Shown here one piece after another: positions 8,623 through 16,581 of a stretch of 21,555 nt of DNA; the first letter of the stretch is position 1, and each line of letters opens with the position of its first letter. The stretch is from assembly GCA_029932645.1 (NCBI GenBank), contig JAOZPR010000004.1, forward strand, positions 1-21,555, read 5' to 3'. Source of the DNA: Candidatus Aenigmatarchaeota archaeon. Its GTDB lineage: Archaea; Aenigmatarchaeota; Aenigmatarchaeia; GW2011-AR5; JAGGXF01. The position numbers were made by a program, and so were the translations under genes. Below the pieces are notes generated by a model that was given only the letters and a program-made list of their open reading frames with translations, was not told where the DNA came from and made no database searches.

Positions 8623-9690
8623 TTATCTTCTCGCGTATTTTCTGACATCAAAACCTCTTAGTTCTAGAACTTCTCTTGTTCTTCCTGTGATCAGAACGGG
8701 TTTGCGCCTCAAATCATCAATAGTTTTGGCGTTCACAAGCACCATTGCTATCTTTAATTCTTGTATGAATTGTTCTATCTTTTCGAGGACTTTTTCTTTG
8801 CTCTCTGTTGCTGGTCTTAAGAATGGGAGCGCGGCACCACATAGTAATGCACCAAGTGCCAGAGACTTTATCATGTCTATGCCACTCCTCACGCCACCTG
8901 ACGCTATTACTGGCATTTTCACACTTTTGCAACATTCTACAAGAGAAACAACAGTTGGTATGCCCCAGCCAGCAAATGTTTTTCCTATGCTTGTATCAGA
9001 CCTGTAAGATTCTACGAGTGGCCAACTTGTGCCGCCAAACCCTGCAACATCTATAGCTGACATGCCAGTCTTTTCGAGCTTAATTGCGGCCTCTCTTGAA
9101 ATGCCGCAGCCAGCCTCTTTAGCTATAACAGGTTTGGACAGCTCTTTGGCTACAAACCTTATTTTTTCTATTGTATCTTGGGTAATGTGCAAGCTTTGTT
9201 GGTCTCCTTCGGGCTGTACCAGTTCTTGTAAGATGTTCAGATGAACAGCCAGTGCGTCGGCATCTACCATATCTATAACACGCGTGATTTTTTCTTTTTC
9301 ATACTTCTTTAGTTGTGCAAAACCGATATTACCTATAAGAAATATGTTTGGCGCAACGTCTCGCACCTGGTATGTTGATTCCAGAGAAGGGTCTTCCAAG
9401 GCAGCACGCTGAGAACCCAGACCCATGGCTATGCCTGCCTGCTCAGCAGCCCATGCCAAGTTTTTATTTATTTTTTCAGCTATCTTCGTTCCACCAGTCA
9501 TGGCTTCTATCAATATCGGCGCCTTTAATTTTTTTCCGAAGAAATCTGTTGTCAAGTCCACATCATCGTAGGTTATGTCCGGTAGTGCCTGATGCGACAG
9601 AAAAACATCATCAAAGCCAGTCGCATGCATATCAACATCTTTTTCCAGACATATCTTTATGTGTTCTTCTTTTCTTTTTTCAGTTGACAT
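8623..9690 (-). CDS. fni: Type 2 isopentenyl-diphosphate delta-isomerase (FMN-dependent IDI-2)
   Basis: RKEEHI, AMTGG, GLGSQRAA, IGNIG, HLNILQELVQPEGD, KEAGCG, GFGGTSW, WGIPT and ASGGVRSG. Confidence 0.95.
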   Translation of the reverse strand: MSTEKRKEEHIKICLEKDVDMHATGFDDVFLSHQALPDITYDDVDLTTDFFGKKLKAPILIEAMTGGTKIAEKINKNLAWAAEQAGIAMGLGSQRAALEDPSLESTYQVRDVAPNIFLIGNIGFAQLKKYEKEKITRVIDMVDADALAVHLNILQELVQPEGDQQSLHITQDTIEKIRFVAKELSKPVIAKEAGCGISREAAIKLEKTGMSAIDVAGFGGTSWPLVESYRSDTSIGKTFAGWGIPTVVSLVECCKSVKMPVIASGGVRSGIDMIKSLALGALLCGAALPFLRPATESKEKVLEKIEQFIQELKIAMVLVNAKTIDDLRRKPVLITGRTREVLELRGFDVRKYARR

Positions 9691-9691
9691 T

Positions 9692-10243
9692 TTAACACCA
9701 TCTCTTATATAGATTATTATTTATTCCGAGGCTGTCAAGTATTTTCCCGACGACAAAGTTAATCATATCGCCAATAGCTTTTGGCTTATGATAAAACGCC
9801 GGACATGGTGGCAGTACGCTCACACCTATCTTTGATAACTTTAGCATATTTTCTATATGAATTGGTGAGAGCGGCGTCTCCCTCGGAACTAAGATTAGTT
9901 TTCTTTTTTCTTTTATCATTACATCTGCGCATCTCGACACGAGATTATCTGCAAATCCGGTTGCTATTGCTGATAATGTCTTCATAGAGCACGGGCATAT
10001 CACCATAGCATCAGCTTTGAAGCTCCCGGAAGCTATGGGAGCTTCCATATCATCTGGATCGAGAACCTTTCCAAAATCTTTGAGTTTGAAAATCTCTTTA
10101 TCATAATCTTCCAGCTCATGTTTCATAACTTTCTTGGCGTTTTTTGTGACTATTATAAAAAGCTCATGCTCTTTGAGTTTTTTAATTAGTTCCAACCCAT
10201 AAATTACTCCGGATGCTCCTGTTATTGCAACAATGACTTTCAT
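9692..10243 (-). CDS. ubiX: UbiX family flavin prenyltransferase (prFMN synthase)
   Basis: [44 protein letters not shown] and PAFYHKP. The likely start is ATG 10243, just after the ipk stop; the ORF-track start at 10297 overlaps ipk. Confidence 0.93.
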
Positions 10244-10244
10244 A

Positions 10245-11093
10245 TCAATTCGCCCCAGTAGCATGTGCCGTAATCCTTGTTCCTGGCACGCTTTCACCTT
10301 TAAGAGCCTTTTCTATCCTTCCTTCGACAAGCCCATTTATAATCAAAGAATCGACACCACACTCTGTGAATATTTTAAGCATCTTCTCAACCTTTGAAAG
10401 CATGCCACCAGTAACATCTGTTCCATAAGAACCAGCGAGATATTTCCTAACTTGGTTTATATTATCACTTGATATTTCTGGTATAATATCCAAATCCGTG
10501 TCTTTTGTTGGGTCTCCTTTGAGAACGCCGTCAACTACGCCACAGTTTATTATTTTGGTTATGTTGAATCCTTGTTTTTTCAGTTCTCTCGCCAGATAAT
10601 AAAATATTTCCTCTGTTGATATGATTGAGCATCCCATTGCTGTGTCCAAGGCAACATCCCCGTATGGAACAGGTATCATGTTGTACTTGAGCAAAATCTT
10701 TATTGGCTCGATGTACATGTACTTAATCTGGCTGTTTTCAGCTATACCAGAACTGGACAAACTGATGGACATCGCGTTTTCTCCGGTATCTAAGAGTTCT
10801 CTAACAACCAGCCTGTTCAATCTAGAAGCAGCATCCTGAACCTCGGCTATTCCTTTGTAGCTTTCTTTGTTTATAATTCCTTTATGCGTCTGATACTTGT
10901 TGGCGGCGGAATGTGGAAAAGAACCACCGCCATGACCAACAATCAGTCGCATGTCCTTTTCTTGTCTGGCATTGTGTATCTCCTTTGTTATGCGTTTTAT
11001 AACACCTGGTCTAAGTGTAAACGGCTTGGTCTTATCTGTCAGCAAACTACCGCCAAGTTTTATCATGATTAATTCCGACTGCATGTGCACCAT
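10245..11093 (-). CDS. ipk: Isopentenyl phosphate kinase
   Basis: Amino-acid-kinase fold: [20 protein letters not shown] (IPK His), PVPYGDV and [10 protein letters not shown]; located within the MVA cluster. Alternative start ATG 11084. Confidence 0.9.
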
Positions 11094-11176
11094 CCATGAG
11101 AGAAATATTTCAGTATCTTTTTAAGTGTATTACGAATCGTAGATCAACGAACTGATTTGAAAAAAATTCAACAGCT

Positions 11177-11578
11177 TCATCCTTCTGCTTCAATAAAACC
11201 GTTGTCTGCATCTACCTTTATTTTTTGCCCTGTTTTTATGATTTCTGTGGGATTCTTTTCTGGCTTATCTATCAGCGGTATGCCAGATATTATCGCACCC
11301 ACAGCTACTATAGGCTCTGACTCAATGTTTATCATGGCTTTTGGCGTCAGACCGTTTTTCTTGAGCTGAAAAATTACATAGCTTCCGACAGTTGAACCAC
11401 AGCCACGAGGAAAAATCAGAATCTTGTCTGCGACACATTCTCCGAAGATGTCGCTTTCTTTGTTCATAATCTTTCCTGTCTTCGGATCAACATCGCCGAG
11501 AAAACTAATAGCGTCTTTTGTTACAAGTGCCTCGCCTTCAGCCAGACCCTTTGATACGACTCGTCCTTTAATAATCAT
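11177..11578 (-). CDS. Phosphomevalonate dehydratase small subunit (AcnX swiveling domain, DUF126)
   Basis: GRVVSKGLAEGEALVT, ISFLGDVDPKTG, GCGSTVGSY and EPIVAVGAII; overlaps the large-subunit stop. Confidence 0.88.
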   Translation of the reverse strand: MIIKGRVVSKGLAEGEALVTKDAISFLGDVDPKTGKIMNKESDIFGECVADKILIFPRGCGSTVGSYVIFQLKKNGLTPKAMINIESEPIVAVGAIISGIPLIDKPEKNPTEIIKTGQKIKVDADNGFIEAEG

Positions 11579-12741
11579 TCTATTATCTCCTCTATCCCAC
11601 CAAAGGATATCTTCTGTTTACATAGCTTTTTCAGGTACAAAGATGCCTTGCCAGAATTGGTTGCCGTGTTTCTGAAACCCATGTCTTCTATAGGTGAAAC
11701 AACAGGACATGTATCACAAATCACTTTTGCACCGGCTGTCTTGATGGCCTTGGTATATCCTTTCTTGTCAGCCTCTTCTTTAACAGCTCTTGAAGTATAA
11801 ATCCACAGTTCTCTCTTCAACTGCTTGTTTTTTACTTTTTCTGCTATAGTTTTTATCTCGCCCAAGGAGCAGTGTGGGCAACCTATGACAACATGATCCA
11901 CGTCTTCCGTGTCTGACAAATCCTTTTTTACTTTTTTGATATCTTCTTCTTTCACTTCTATTGTCTCTGGCTTGTCTAGTGACCACTCTGGTGTCTGTCC
12001 TTTTACAAAGAAGAGAGCAACAGCGCCGGATGCTGCCATCGCAGCACCAAGAGCTTTGAGTTGCTCTTCTGTTGAGCGCTGCTCGAGCTCGAACGCAGGA
12101 ACCTTGTTCTTGACCAGCCTGCCGGCGTAAACACCAAGCGCACCGAAATCTGAAATGGTCTTAAGTTTGACTTGCGCCTTTATCAAAAAATTTGCAACCC
12201 TGTTCTCGCCGAGATGATAACCATAATTAGCGGTTTTTCCTATTATCGCCGCTGCCAGAGACGATGGTCCGCCTTCTCGGTTTGTTCTAGCGCCTAAGAC
12301 AGAATTAGCAAACGAAACAGCAGACGACTCTGACCATGCGATATGCTCGCCTGTGCTCGGCCGAAGGCCGATGAGATATGGTGTGCATGTGCATGAAATA
12401 TTAACACCTATTTTTCTGAAAATCTCTATAATTTTCATCTGCTTCTCGGCAAAACTTTTTTTCACTCCCATTGCTTTCCAATCACAGAGGTCCATGCCAG
12501 CTGGATTGAGATATGTGTTCACAGCTACCTTGGCGCCGTTATCAGAAAAAAATTTTATGAAATCTGTACCTGCATCTCCAATGGTTTTGTAAGAAACGCC
12601 GGCCAGTTGGGCAGAGCTCACCGGTATTAATTTGTCTGCTTCATAAATTTTTCCTAATGCGACAAGAAGTTCGATTGCCTTTTGCTTGGCAATGCCTTCT
12701 TCGCCGTTATAAATCCTTTCTTCCTCTTTTGTTAAGTACAT
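11575..12741 (-). CDS. Phosphomevalonate dehydratase large subunit (aconitase X catalytic domain, DUF521)
   Basis: MYLTKEEE, GVSYKTIG, SCTCTPY, AWSESSAVSFANSVLGARTNREGG, IGCPHCS, DTCPVVSP and TNSGKA. The PMDh function is assigned from the mvk/ipk context. Confidence 0.88.
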   Translation of the reverse strand: MYLTKEEERIYNGEEGIAKQKAIELLVALGKIYEADKLIPVSSAQLAGVSYKTIGDAGTDFIKFFSDNGAKVAVNTYLNPAGMDLCDWKAMGVKKSFAEKQMKIIEIFRKIGVNISCTCTPYLIGLRPSTGEHIAWSESSAVSFANSVLGARTNREGGPSSLAAAIIGKTANYGYHLGENRVANFLIKAQVKLKTISDFGALGVYAGRLVKNKVPAFELEQRSTEEQLKALGAAMAASGAVALFFVKGQTPEWSLDKPETIEVKEEDIKKVKKDLSDTEDVDHVVIGCPHCSLGEIKTIAEKVKNKQLKRELWIYTSRAVKEEADKKGYTKAIKTAGAKVICDTCPVVSPIEDMGFRNTATNSGKASLYLKKLCKQKISFGGIEEIIE

Positions 12742-12755
12742 TTTTCATCAACAAC

Positions 12756-14054
12756 TCAGTCAATAATTTCAACATAATCTCTGATACTTATTTTGTCTTC
12801 AAGTGGGGCCTTTACCTTGACAAAGTGTTGCGCGTCCTTATCAAAGGGTATTGTACAGTCCATGCCAAGCTTGGTAGTTTTTCTTGTTTTCGGGTCTGCT
12901 GATGGGTCGAGTGAAGATCCCCGTTCGTTCTTTTTTATCACGAGATCTTTGTCTGCCTGGAATCGTGTCGCGATAGCCCACTCTATCTCATTCGGGTCAA
13001 ATATGTTGATATCCTCATCCACCACTATGACATGCTTGAGCGACTTGTGACCACGGAACGCGGCCTCTATAGCTTGTTTACCATCGTCTGCCTTTGTGTT
13101 TTTAATAGCCACGACAGCGTGCAACCATGAACAACCACCAGGAGTAATGTAAACGTTTTTGCATCTACAAACCTTGTTTACCTCGTTGAATATGACTGGC
13201 TCCTTCGGGACGCCCATCAATATTTTATGCTCGAGCCCGCTAGGAAGTATCGTGTGATACACTGCATCTTTCCTGATAAATATTTTCTTTATCTTAATAA
13301 CAGGCTGTTTTCTCACTATGTCGTATGTTTCTGTAAGATCCACAAAAGGTCCTTCATCGTGTGTTTCGCCAGTTAACTCGGCTATCATAACTATATCTGA
13401 GCACGGAACAACATGCCCGTTTATGTCAACTGTTTTAGTCATCTTTAGTGTGTTAGATATCTCAAGTTCGCTTTGGCCTGCGCCAACAGATATTGCAGAT
13501 GCCAATAAAACATTCGGTTCCATGCCTATGCATATTGCAAACTCTTTAAGACCCCTATCAATATACTGGCTAAAGTGCCTCGGCAATATTCTCGCGGCCA
13601 GCTTGTCTTTTCCTATGACCATCATCCGATGAAACGAGCAATTTATCCCGTACTTGGGATCGTTCGCAATAACAACGCTCGCGGACATGTATGGACCACC
13701 GTCCTTTTCAAAGTGCGTTAATATGGGTAAGCGGGACAAATCAGTGTCAATCTCCTCATAATTTTCTTTTACTATCGTTGGTTTGGATGGGTTGTTGATG
13801 GCATCGGAAACTTTGAACAGTAGGTTTTTTTCATCTATATCGAGCGCTTTGCAAAGCAGCTGCCTTGTTGGGCAGAGGTTTGCTATTACTGGGTATTTAG
13901 AATGTTCGCCACTCTTCAAAACAGGCTTTGTAAAAAGAATCGGCCGGTCTTGGAGTTTTTTGATGATAGATGCCATTTCATATTCAACAGAAACCGGTCT
14001 GTCTATCTTTACCAAAATACCATCAGCATCTAACTTCTTGACAAAATCTAACAT
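12756..14054 (-). CDS. UbiD-family prFMN-dependent decarboxylase; probable trans-anhydromevalonate 5-phosphate decarboxylase (AMPD)
   Basis: LPILTHFEKDGGPY, SFHRM, EGPFVDLTETYD, GGCSWLH, KHVIVVDEDINIFD, EWAIATRFQAD and GSSLDPS. The AMPD function is assigned from context. Confidence 0.85.
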   Translation of the reverse strand: MLDFVKKLDADGILVKIDRPVSVEYEMASIIKKLQDRPILFTKPVLKSGEHSKYPVIANLCPTRQLLCKALDIDEKNLLFKVSDAINNPSKPTIVKENYEEIDTDLSRLPILTHFEKDGGPYMSASVVIANDPKYGINCSFHRMMVIGKDKLAARILPRHFSQYIDRGLKEFAICIGMEPNVLLASAISVGAGQSELEISNTLKMTKTVDINGHVVPCSDIVMIAELTGETHDEGPFVDLTETYDIVRKQPVIKIKKIFIRKDAVYHTILPSGLEHKILMGVPKEPVIFNEVNKVCRCKNVYITPGGCSWLHAVVAIKNTKADDGKQAIEAAFRGHKSLKHVIVVDEDINIFDPNEIEWAIATRFQADKDLVIKKNERGSSLDPSADPKTRKTTKLGMDCTIPFDKDAQHFVKVKAPLEDKISIRDYVEIID

Positions 14055-15089
14055 TCAACCACCAACCTGATTTTTATCCGTTTTTATTTTTTTAACGCCT
14101 TCAACACCTATGTTTGTGATTATTGCCTTGCCACCAGCTTTTTCAATAGCTTCTGCTACCTTTTTCTGATCATCGGCAACAGCTATCATTATCCCGCCCC
14201 CGCCCGCGCCAGACATTTTTGCACCAAATGCATCTGCTTGCAGTGCAGCATTACACAGCTTTTCCAAAGCAGAATGGCTCACGCCAAGCTGCCCTAACAG
14301 CTCGTGGTTCTTGTTCATCAGTGCTCCGAGCTCTTTCAAGCTGTTGTTTTTTATGGCTATTATAGAATCTTGTGATATATTATCTATTTCGTCCAACAGT
14401 TTTTTCTTTTCTGGATTTTGCTGCAAAAGTTTGCGTACATTGCCGACCAGTTCCCCGGTATTACCACCAATACCGGTGTCACCAATAACAATAGGTATCT
14501 TTTGTTTGATATCTAAAATCTTGATTTGTTCTGATTTTCTGAATGCTATATAACCACCATAAACAACGGTACTGTTGTCTATGCCAGACGGCGTTCCGCC
14601 ATGAGCTATGATATCCCCCTGATAAGTCATATCACTTATCTCTTTCTTTGTCAGATTCATTTGGTAAAAATCACCGAGAGCCGAAACAACAGATGCAAAC
14701 AAAGACGAGCCAGAACCAAGCCCGCTTGCTATCGGTATGTCAGACCTTAGTAAGAGTTCAAACGGCACAAAACCATGCTCAGCAACAAACAATGATATAA
14801 TATATTTTATCGGGGAAAAGATGTCGTCTTTGGACATCTGCTTTAGCGATTCATAATCTTCTTCTTTTCGCAGTTCATCCACGCGCTGCTTTAAGCGTGA
14901 AATTTCTGACTCTGTCAGTTGCTGTATCATATCAAGCCTTTTGTCTTTGACCGTGATGCGTCTATGATTGTTTTCAGTCACTTCAGCAACAGACCTGATA
15001 TCGACAGCTGCAGCAATGCCAAGCTTGTCATATACGACCGCATGTTCACCAAAGAGTATGACCTTACCCGGCGCACTTGCACCAAACAT
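14055..15089 (-). CDS. mvk: Mevalonate kinase (GHMP family)
   Basis: SAPGKVILFGEHAVVY, PIASGLGSGSS, HGGTPSGIDN and KMSGAGGGG. Start placed at ATG 15089 because AGGTG precedes it; the ORF-track start at 15134 is the alternative. Confidence 0.93.
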   Translation of the reverse strand: MFGASAPGKVILFGEHAVVYDKLGIAAAVDIRSVAEVTENNHRRITVKDKRLDMIQQLTESEISRLKQRVDELRKEEDYESLKQMSKDDIFSPIKYIISLFVAEHGFVPFELLLRSDIPIASGLGSGSSLFASVVSALGDFYQMNLTKKEISDMTYQGDIIAHGGTPSGIDNSTVVYGGYIAFRKSEQIKILDIKQKIPIVIGDTGIGGNTGELVGNVRKLLQQNPEKKKLLDEIDNISQDSIIAIKNNSLKELGALMNKNHELLGQLGVSHSALEKLCNAALQADAFGAKMSGAGGGGIMIAVADDQKKVAEAIEKAGGKAIITNIGVEGVKKIKTDKNQVGG

Positions 15090-15215
15090 CAAAACACCTG
15101 CTTCTTTTTTTATAAACACCTGTTTCTCTTTCATAGATAGTTTTTTTACAATACTTTGTTTAAAATACTTTGTTAAAAGATTTTATAGTTTAACAACAAA
15201 CAAATATATCGACAT

Positions 15216-15377
15216 GCGCCTGTGGTCTAGTTGGTTAGATTTCGTCGCTGTTTGAAACAGCGGTGAAAAACAAAGACGTTGCCTTCACACATTATATATA
15301 ACATGGGAGAAACGGCAGAGATCGGCAGTTCAAAATCGTTGTTGCTGGCAACAGCGAGGAATATCTGCCCGGGCGCA
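15216..15377 (+). tRNA. tRNA-Val(CAC) with three introns (about 15239-15274, D-arm; about 15289-15311, anticodon loop; about 15335-15363, T-loop)
   Basis: Removing the three inserts gives a 74-nt cloverleaf: GCGCCTG-TG-GTCT-AGTTGGTTA-GGAC-G-TTGCC-TTCACAC-GGCAG-AGATC-GGCAG-TTCAAAT-CTGCC-CGGGCGC-A. Each insert folds into a relaxed BHB-like motif. CCA is not encoded. Confidence 0.88.
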
Positions 15378-16418: not shown

Positions 16419-16581
16419 TGGGCCCGGCGAGATTTGTTCAGGCTCTTATTTTTGAAGAACCTTTTGAACACGCGACCTCCAGTTAGCCCAGATGTTCCAA
16501 GCATTTCCCATTTTGCTTGGAAGTCGTATAAGACTGGCGCTCTAATTGCCCGATTGCATCTCCAGGCTAAGCTACGGGCCC
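16419..16581 (-). tRNA. tRNA-Ile(UAU) with three introns (16546-16561, D-loop 19/20; 16485-16526, canonical 37/38; 16434-16463, T-loop 58/59)
   Basis: Spliced 75-nt product: GGGCCCG-TA-GCTT-AGCCTGGTTA-GAGC-G-CCAGT-CTTATAA-ACTGG-AGGTC-GCGTG-TTCAAAT-CTCGC-CGGGCCC-A. BHB central helices are GCCT/GGGC, CTTA/TGGG and GTTC/GAAC, each with 3-nt bulges. There is one U-U mismatch in the T-stem. A T-rich tract follows. Confidence 0.9.

Follow-up and report, generated by a model that had tools for sequence, protein, structure and literature searches.

A three-intron tRNA-Val(CAC) gene in an Aenigmatarchaeota genome in which all tRNA genes found are interrupted

Thermoproteales carry up to three introns per tRNA gene, and intron transposition is established in this order (PMC4033280, PMC8450103, PMC3239211); Pyrobaculum calidifontis has 71 introns in 46 tRNA genes (PMC8450103). 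The earlier high for the share of disrupted tRNA genes was 87% (PMC3239211). In Asgard genomes 92 to 95% of tRNA genes are interrupted (PMC11291895), and a motif-free census of this group gave 97%, an average of 2.2 introns per gene and a maximum of five (bioRxiv 10.64898/2026.10.13.758758). ARMAN-2, which has an ε2 form of the splicing enzyme EndA, has 56% of its tRNA genes disrupted (PMC3239211). EndA of the α4 type is classically strict in specificity (PMC3239211), and α4 enzymes with an L3 loop were described from several DPANN lineages with more tRNA disruption, broad specificity of the loop being a correlation there rather than the result of an assay (PMC5829648). The route by which introns enter archaeal tRNA genes has been called open (bioRxiv 10.64898/2026.10.13.758758). 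A tRNA-intron census for Aenigmatarchaeota was not found in the literature searched, and Figure 7 of PMC5829648 may include one. A three-intron gene, a saturated tRNA set and five introns in one gene are none of them new for archaea. Added here are gene-to-gene copies of introns, two Pro introns swapped between species, near-identity across species with saturated silent sites for half of the D-arm introns (intron 1 of the Val(CAC) gene included), and a five-intron tRNA-Phe in a relative.

The window, a 21,555-nt stretch of an Aenigmatarchaeota genome (G000; 719 kb, 89% complete), contains a tRNA-Val(CAC) gene with three introns (Table 1). The gene was modeled with our own covariance-style parser, which compares DNA with a cloverleaf profile built from 24 intronless tRNAs of related genomes and allows optional introns at any junction. 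The locus scored 79.8 bits; the highest score among 200 dinucleotide shuffles was 1.0. The initial annotation had proposed inserts of 36, 23 and 29 nt, the removal of which leaves a 74-nt tRNA-Val(CAC), and the parser arrived at the same coordinates, lengths and product; dropping the splicing-motif term altered neither the insert lengths, all three of them, nor the product. The product spliced in silico forms a complete cloverleaf with every stem position paired and the conserved tRNA residues present, and ARAGORN (-rp) identified it as a tRNA with anticodon CAC. From the unspliced window, no tRNA was reported by ARAGORN or Rfam, and the gene was not among the 31 places listed by an RF00005 search of G000. 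A split or permuted tRNA gene was rejected, as the four exons are collinear within 162 nt. TATA-like hexamers peak 32 to 36 nt 5′ of the tRNA genes of G000 (n = 41), and the one predicted as the promoter of this gene is given in Table 1; sigma-70 promoter scans are unsuited to archaea. The gene is flanked by genes for a mevalonate kinase and a UMP-kinase-like protein. The ORFs counted contain 2,342 GUG codons, and no second Val(CAC) gene was found among the 41 tRNA genes of the 89% complete assembly; one could lie in the unassembled part.

Table 1. Features of the tRNA genes in the window, and the swapped Pro introns elsewhere in the genome
Feature	Position	Strand	Details
TATA-like hexamer, predicted promoter	15182..15187	+	34 nt 5′ of tRNA start
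tRNA-Val(CAC) gene	15216..15377	+	own parser; three introns, four exons, 162 nt
Exon 1, tRNA positions 1-22	15216..15238	+	parser; identical in G001 and L359
Intron 1, 36 nt, at 22/23	15239..15274	+	13-bp hairpin; central helix 3/4 pairs, G18·A mismatch
Exon 2, positions 23-36	15275..15288	+	anticodon CAC at 15286-15288
Intron 2, 23 nt, best register 36/37	15289..15311	+	central helix 4/4
Exon 3, positions 37-59	15312..15334	+	parser
Intron 3, 29 nt, at 59/60	15335..15363	+	9-bp hairpin; central helix 3/4, A57·G mismatch
Exon 4, positions 60-73	15364..15377	+	parser; CCA not encoded
tRNA-Ile(UAU)	16419..16581	−	introns 19/20 (16546-16561), 37/38 (16485-16526), 58/59 (16434-16463)
Swapped Pro D-arm introns	G000:C5:10633-10929	−	vs L168:10202-10404

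[quoted passage not shown] For the anticodon-loop intron, a junction at 36/37 had been preferred over 37/38, and this choice holds: the first register gives 4/4 central-helix pairs and three inner pairs, the second only two and none, and the spliced product is identical for both. No outer helix directly adjoins the 3′ bulge of intron 2; in intron 3, the T stem serves as the outer helix. The purine-purine mismatches previously noted in the central helices of the D-arm and T-loop motifs were confirmed as G18·A and A57·G. The G18·A mismatch belongs to the 22/23 site, since G18 lies opposite A in every intron at this site in G000 (4/4) and in G001 (4/4), a genome of the same genus. The 59/60 introns of most other genes have a fully paired central helix. 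Single junctions were modestly above chance (P = 0.017, 0.017 and 0.022; 5,000 shuffles of each intron). Minimum-energy folding left the central helices of introns 1 and 3 unformed, and the folding energy of intron 2 was no better than that of shuffles (z = −1.3). From these motifs we infer that the tRNA-Val(CAC) precursor would be spliced at the predicted junctions.

One EndA gene, encoding 207 aa, was identified in G000 (C27:32447-33070), with single PF01974 and PF02778 matches in the same gene and a score above the TIGR00324 cut-off, and tblastn identified no second EndA paralogue in the 89% complete assembly. An RtcB gene is also present. The EndA sequence is closest to M. jannaschii α4 and N. 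equitans α; it has an insert of six residues relative to the former and aligns without gaps to the latter, and 15 residues separate the presumed catalytic Tyr and His. Its acidic C-terminal loop, which we take to have a role in tetramer assembly, aligns to that of M. jannaschii. As judged from one gene in an assembly that is 89% complete, the enzyme is likely an α4 homotetramer, and a diverged β subunit could be unassembled. The Tyr-to-His insert, which would correspond to the L3 loop of PMC5829648, occurs in 28 of 29 EndA loci examined in the order. These include the intron-poor genomes G009 and G025, where 14/14 and 18/19 of the best RF00005 rows are uninterrupted genes of 71 to 75 nt; the presence of the loop in intron-poor relatives argues that it permits an intron load and does not cause it. 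In family f7, a second, multi-unit EndA of ∼400 aa occurs beside the single-unit one in 7/7 genomes searched, including G008 (L250, on G008:C2).

The explanation that we consider highly probable is the splicing of one precursor to a normal 74-nt tRNA, with the introns as tolerated, mobile inserts. The Val(CAC) gene would be transcribed as a single precursor in which the three inserts fold into relaxed BHB motifs; the sole EndA would cut these, RtcB would rejoin the exons, and CCA would be added after transcription. A putative α4 EndA with the Tyr-to-His loop insert would accept the mismatched motifs. Each motif is built from contiguous genomic sequence, so no splicing order would be forced. 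The most likely history of the introns is one of accumulation as tolerated, mobile inserts: a permissive EndA would let them persist, they would spread between tRNA genes by copying through the conserved exons, and they would turn over fast. Pure tolerance fits poorly with two features described below, namely that no gene is intronless and that many D-arm introns are nearly identical between species.

The Val(CAC) genes of G001 and of the metagenome locus L359 have introns at the same three sites as the window gene. The exons of the G001 orthologue are identical at 73/74 positions, the sole change being U27·G43 to C27-G43, and intron 1 is identical at 36/36 positions in both G001 and L359. Introns 2 and 3 share 50% and 71% identity with those of G001, with pairing kept. 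In G001, intron 2 is 36 nt long and has a fully Watson-Crick central helix (U33·G to U33-A) and a 5-bp inner helix, changes that favor the 36/37 register, and intron 3 has one two-sided and one one-sided pair change. Covariation was no better than in a shuffle control (149/500), for three sequences of which two are nearly identical. Outside the genus, the Val(CAC) intron sites differ (15/16 and 37/38 in G002, 23/24 in G003 and 13/14 in G024, with an intronless gene in G006), and the three introns of the window gene are therefore likely genus-level gains. Among 70 genomes of the order, two contained the intron 1 hairpin. No match to the exon-3 pattern was found in viral contigs, or to the tRNA-Val(CAC) gene in plasmids.

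Contigs from metagenome runs covered the same locus. One contig of run X4 covers the whole region unbroken with two differences, neither inside the gene, and one from run X6 extends across the gene and matches it throughout; an assembly artefact is thereby ruled out. A low-depth contig of run X13 (depth 3.7) matches the window in the exons and intron 3 and has 11 differences within intron 1, so the sequence of this intron is not invariant; by our reading of the table of differences, the base of the hairpin would still pair in this allele. No DNA contig skipping any intron was found in the eight runs, for which it should be noted that contigs drop rare variants. That the locus as a whole is a pseudogene or an assembly artefact giving no mature tRNA is very hard to credit. 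Two of its central helices contain mismatches, and GUG could possibly be read by tRNA-Val(UAC), which can do so by wobble; however, the 73/74 exon identity is held between species that have reached saturation at silent sites, pairing within the inserts is retained in G001, and the X4 and X6 contigs span the gene.

Across G000, 41 tRNA genes were identified at 52 to 98 bits, the best rejected candidate of the parser scoring 16 bits. Introns were present in 41/41, with a total of 67 introns in 15 site classes: 20 genes had one, 16 had two and five had three (Val-CAC, Ile-UAU, Asn, Gly-UCC and Ser-UGA). The earlier suggestion that the whole tRNA set may be intron-invaded is thus borne out by the census, while three introns per gene is not the rule (5/41). 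Three variable-arm introns were re-placed by directed search. A motif-free parse returned the same 20/16/5 split, with identical lengths in 35/41 genes. At least three central and at least two inner pairs could be formed by 39 of the 41 non-canonical introns, compared with 0 to 7 in 20 shuffles. The census used an intron limit of 140 nt, and a few genes with very long introns may be absent from the 41. ARAGORN without its intron option reported two tRNA genes; standard tools miss most such genes, so the tRNA counts of such MAGs are too low.

In G001 (∼811 kb), 44/44 tRNA genes are interrupted, by 72 introns. In other genomes, where loci were picked by RF00005, which favors intact genes, the interrupted share was 32/33 (G002), 31/31 (G003), 24/25 (G024), 16/18 (G004), 23/24 (G006) and 17/18 (G012), with one low-scoring row left out of each of the G003 and G006 counts. 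Val(UAC) is intronless in G002, and one or two genes are intronless in each of G004, G006, G012 and G024, Val(CAC) being among them in G006. G004's gene for tRNA-Phe(GAA) (L243:631-851, plus strand) has five predicted short introns, at 14/15, 30/31, 37/38, 42/43 and 59/60, and its tRNA-Asn(GUU) gene (L243:351-534, plus strand) has four predicted BHB introns. Once spliced, these match the intronless genes of the congener G017 at 67/74 and 63/73 positions, respectively. In G006 and G012, genes that seemed to hold four or five introns were rejected as such, because single long introns had been split by the 140-nt limit and the genes have at most three introns at a limit of 230 nt; four-intron calls in G003 and at L356 look like the same artefact and were not counted. 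At L273, L254, L266 and L358, introns of 165 to 180 nt in G006 and G012 and apparent inserts of >230 nt in G004 were observed, and these long introns could hold nested elements or guide RNAs.

Selection might instead keep at least one intron in every tRNA gene, for example through a need in maturation or a function of the intron RNA, with the gene and its splicing the same as above. We regard this as unlikely, albeit with several observations in its favor. Regional shuffling of introns gave an expectation of 3.9 and 4.1 intronless genes for G000 and G001, where 0/41 and 0/44 were seen (permutation P = 0.005 and 0.003), and Glu(UUC) and Gly(CCC) each have a single intron that lies at different sites in the two genomes. 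These genomes are nevertheless non-independent and the test was picked after the data had been seen; G002 has its intronless Val(UAC) (P = 0.58), G004, G006, G012 and G024 have their few intronless genes, and the X13 contig differs at 11 places inside intron 1. The conservation of D-arm introns between species also favors selection, with 9/23 of those shared by G000 and G001 at least 90% identical compared with 1/37 of the other shared introns (Fisher P = 0.0004), in genomes whose four-fold sites are 44.5% identical overall and 41% and 49% identical in two genes flanking the Val(CAC) gene. Of the D-arm introns of G000, 12/24 had a copy of at least 94% identity in G001, compared with 1/43 of the other introns at 90%. 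Conserved and diverged D-arm introns could not be told apart by their upstream identity (P = 0.23).

Copies of introns in other tRNA genes support the reading preferred here, that of mobile inserts. Partners of at least 80% identity in another tRNA gene were identified for 9/67 introns in G000, 4/72 in G001 and 15/62 in G002, compared with 0 to 2 in shuffles. Asp and Gly(UCC) have an identical 91-nt intron at 59/60, and three more genes have 84-nt relatives of it. Judging by these identities, copying of introns between tRNA genes within genomes is plain. Outside tRNA genes, no convincing intron copies were found in G000, and a general repeat or MITE source was rejected on this basis. Comparison of 41 orthologous pairs from G000 and G001 gave 74 intron sites, 60 of which were common to both species and 14 confined to one. 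In the neighboring Pro(UGG) and Pro(AGG) genes, a 28-nt and a 19-nt D-arm intron trade places from one genome to the other, with 100% and 95% identity (Table 1).

Outside their tRNA genes, G000 and G001 share 221 exact runs of at least 36 nt, and four-fold identity is at least 0.7 in 10 of 471 genes, which makes some recent exchange between the two species likely. High-identity tracts with G001 occur in C14, C33, C35, C40 and other contigs of G000, against a mean protein identity of 79%. A P value of 2e−13 for the identity of intron 1 was discarded as an overstatement because the two genomes share such tracts. The near-identical D-arm introns could be explained by exchange or by selection. Two assembly breaks of G000, C14/C4 and C17/C27, have 55-nt overlaps and end at the 37/38 border of Val(GAC) and Arg(UCU); they may reflect intron alleles in the population.

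The initial annotation had also raised the hypothesis that such introns block tRNA-targeting integrases. For the Val(CAC) gene this fits, as its longest exon is 23 nt and the attP of SSV1 is 44 bp (PMC3293823). PF00589 had no match in G000, which is weak evidence in an 89% complete MAG, and G000 contains no duplicated tRNA pieces other than two 55-nt contig overlaps. As a general role, retention of introns for breaking attachment sites nonetheless seems improbable, more so than a selected need for introns: 30/41 genes of G000 are free of introns between position 49 and the 3′ end, leaving the T arm and 3′ end unbroken, six have D-arm introns only, and in G001, equally saturated, a gene of the integrase family lies intact ∼0.5 kb upstream of tRNA-Ala(UGC). 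It can also be reasoned that an integrase could target intron-containing sequence. At Val(CAC) itself, no att site was identified, with no piece of the gene elsewhere in G000 at an E value of 0.01 and no PF00589 match; two att-like tRNA duplicates in G000 were dismissed as the 55-nt contig overlaps. The G001 gene lies on G001:C23 (L218 / L151:1824-1926) and is an intact 280-aa ORF of the tyrosine-recombinase family. The neighboring tRNA-Ala(UGC) has a D-loop intron only, and no att duplication was found there; Ala(UGC) was not found in G000.

Like Thermoproteales, G000 carries as many as three BHB introns in a single tRNA gene, with the D arm, anticodon arm and T loop as their places, and its load of 1.63 introns per gene compares with 1.54 in Pyrobaculum calidifontis. 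Near-identical introns across tRNA genes make up 13% in G000 and 24% in G002 (80% identity), and 28% in Thermoproteales with different clustering. Unlike Thermoproteales, G000 belongs to an unrelated, DPANN lineage and has one EndA gene, its product likely α4, rather than an (αβ)2 enzyme with the crenarchaeal loop, and no intronless gene was found in G000. Near-saturation in the Asgard groups Freyarchaeia, Atabeyarchaeia and Jordiarchaeia (92 to 97%) is matched by 41/41 in G000 and 44/44 in G001; in both settings many D-arm and T-loop sites are missed by standard tools, genes have up to five inserts, and the EndA features appear permissive rather than causal. In Asgard the load is higher (2.2 per gene) and copying between tRNA types amounts to 1.5%, whereas copying is plain in the G000 lineage, and the Asgard genomes mostly have two EndA paralogues whereas G000 has one EndA gene. 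With the disrupted DPANN tRNA sets, G000 shares a small genome, non-canonical introns including those at 59/60, a tRNA-Ile(UAU) and an EndA whose catalytic unit has a loop insert. Its disrupted share is far higher than that of ARMAN-2, and its EndA is of single-unit rather than three-unit build.

A more speculative proposal, which we also consider unlikely, is that the tRNA genes of this genus cannot be intronless and that their introns are cassettes, exchanged between genes and between co-occurring species via conserved exons. If so, the twelve near-identical D-arm introns, the swapped Pro introns and intron 1's third allele would be snapshots of such exchange in progress, with all cassettes processed by the simplest, one-gene splicing enzyme. 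Interest lies less in the Val(CAC) gene alone than in the clade, as a setting in which intron arrival and the specificity of a one-gene EndA can be tested. It offers close genome pairs with recent gains, losses, copies and swaps, and it has intron-rich and intron-poor relatives within one order, which makes arrival routes and any benefit testable. It also allows a biochemical test of a one-gene EndA with the DPANN loop against mismatched motifs at ∼15 tRNA positions.

The second three-intron tRNA that had been noted in the window was identified as tRNA-Ile(UAU) (Table 1). It shares an identical D-loop intron of 16 nt with Ile(GAU). The TiaS domain PF08489 had no match in 31/31 genomes searched, which fits AUA decoding by tRNA-Ile(UAU). 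A tRNA-Pro(AGG) gene was found in G000 (C5:10633-10725, minus strand), G001 (L168:10303-10404) and G002 (L189:1737-1880), and Pro(GGG) was found in none of the three; archaeal tRNAs rarely have A as the wobble base. Positions 8623 to 15134 of the window (minus strand) encode a mevalonate kinase, a UbiD-like protein, two aconitase-X-like subunits, isopentenyl phosphate kinase, UbiX and a type 2 IDI, a cluster that we presume to represent the archaeal modified mevalonate pathway.
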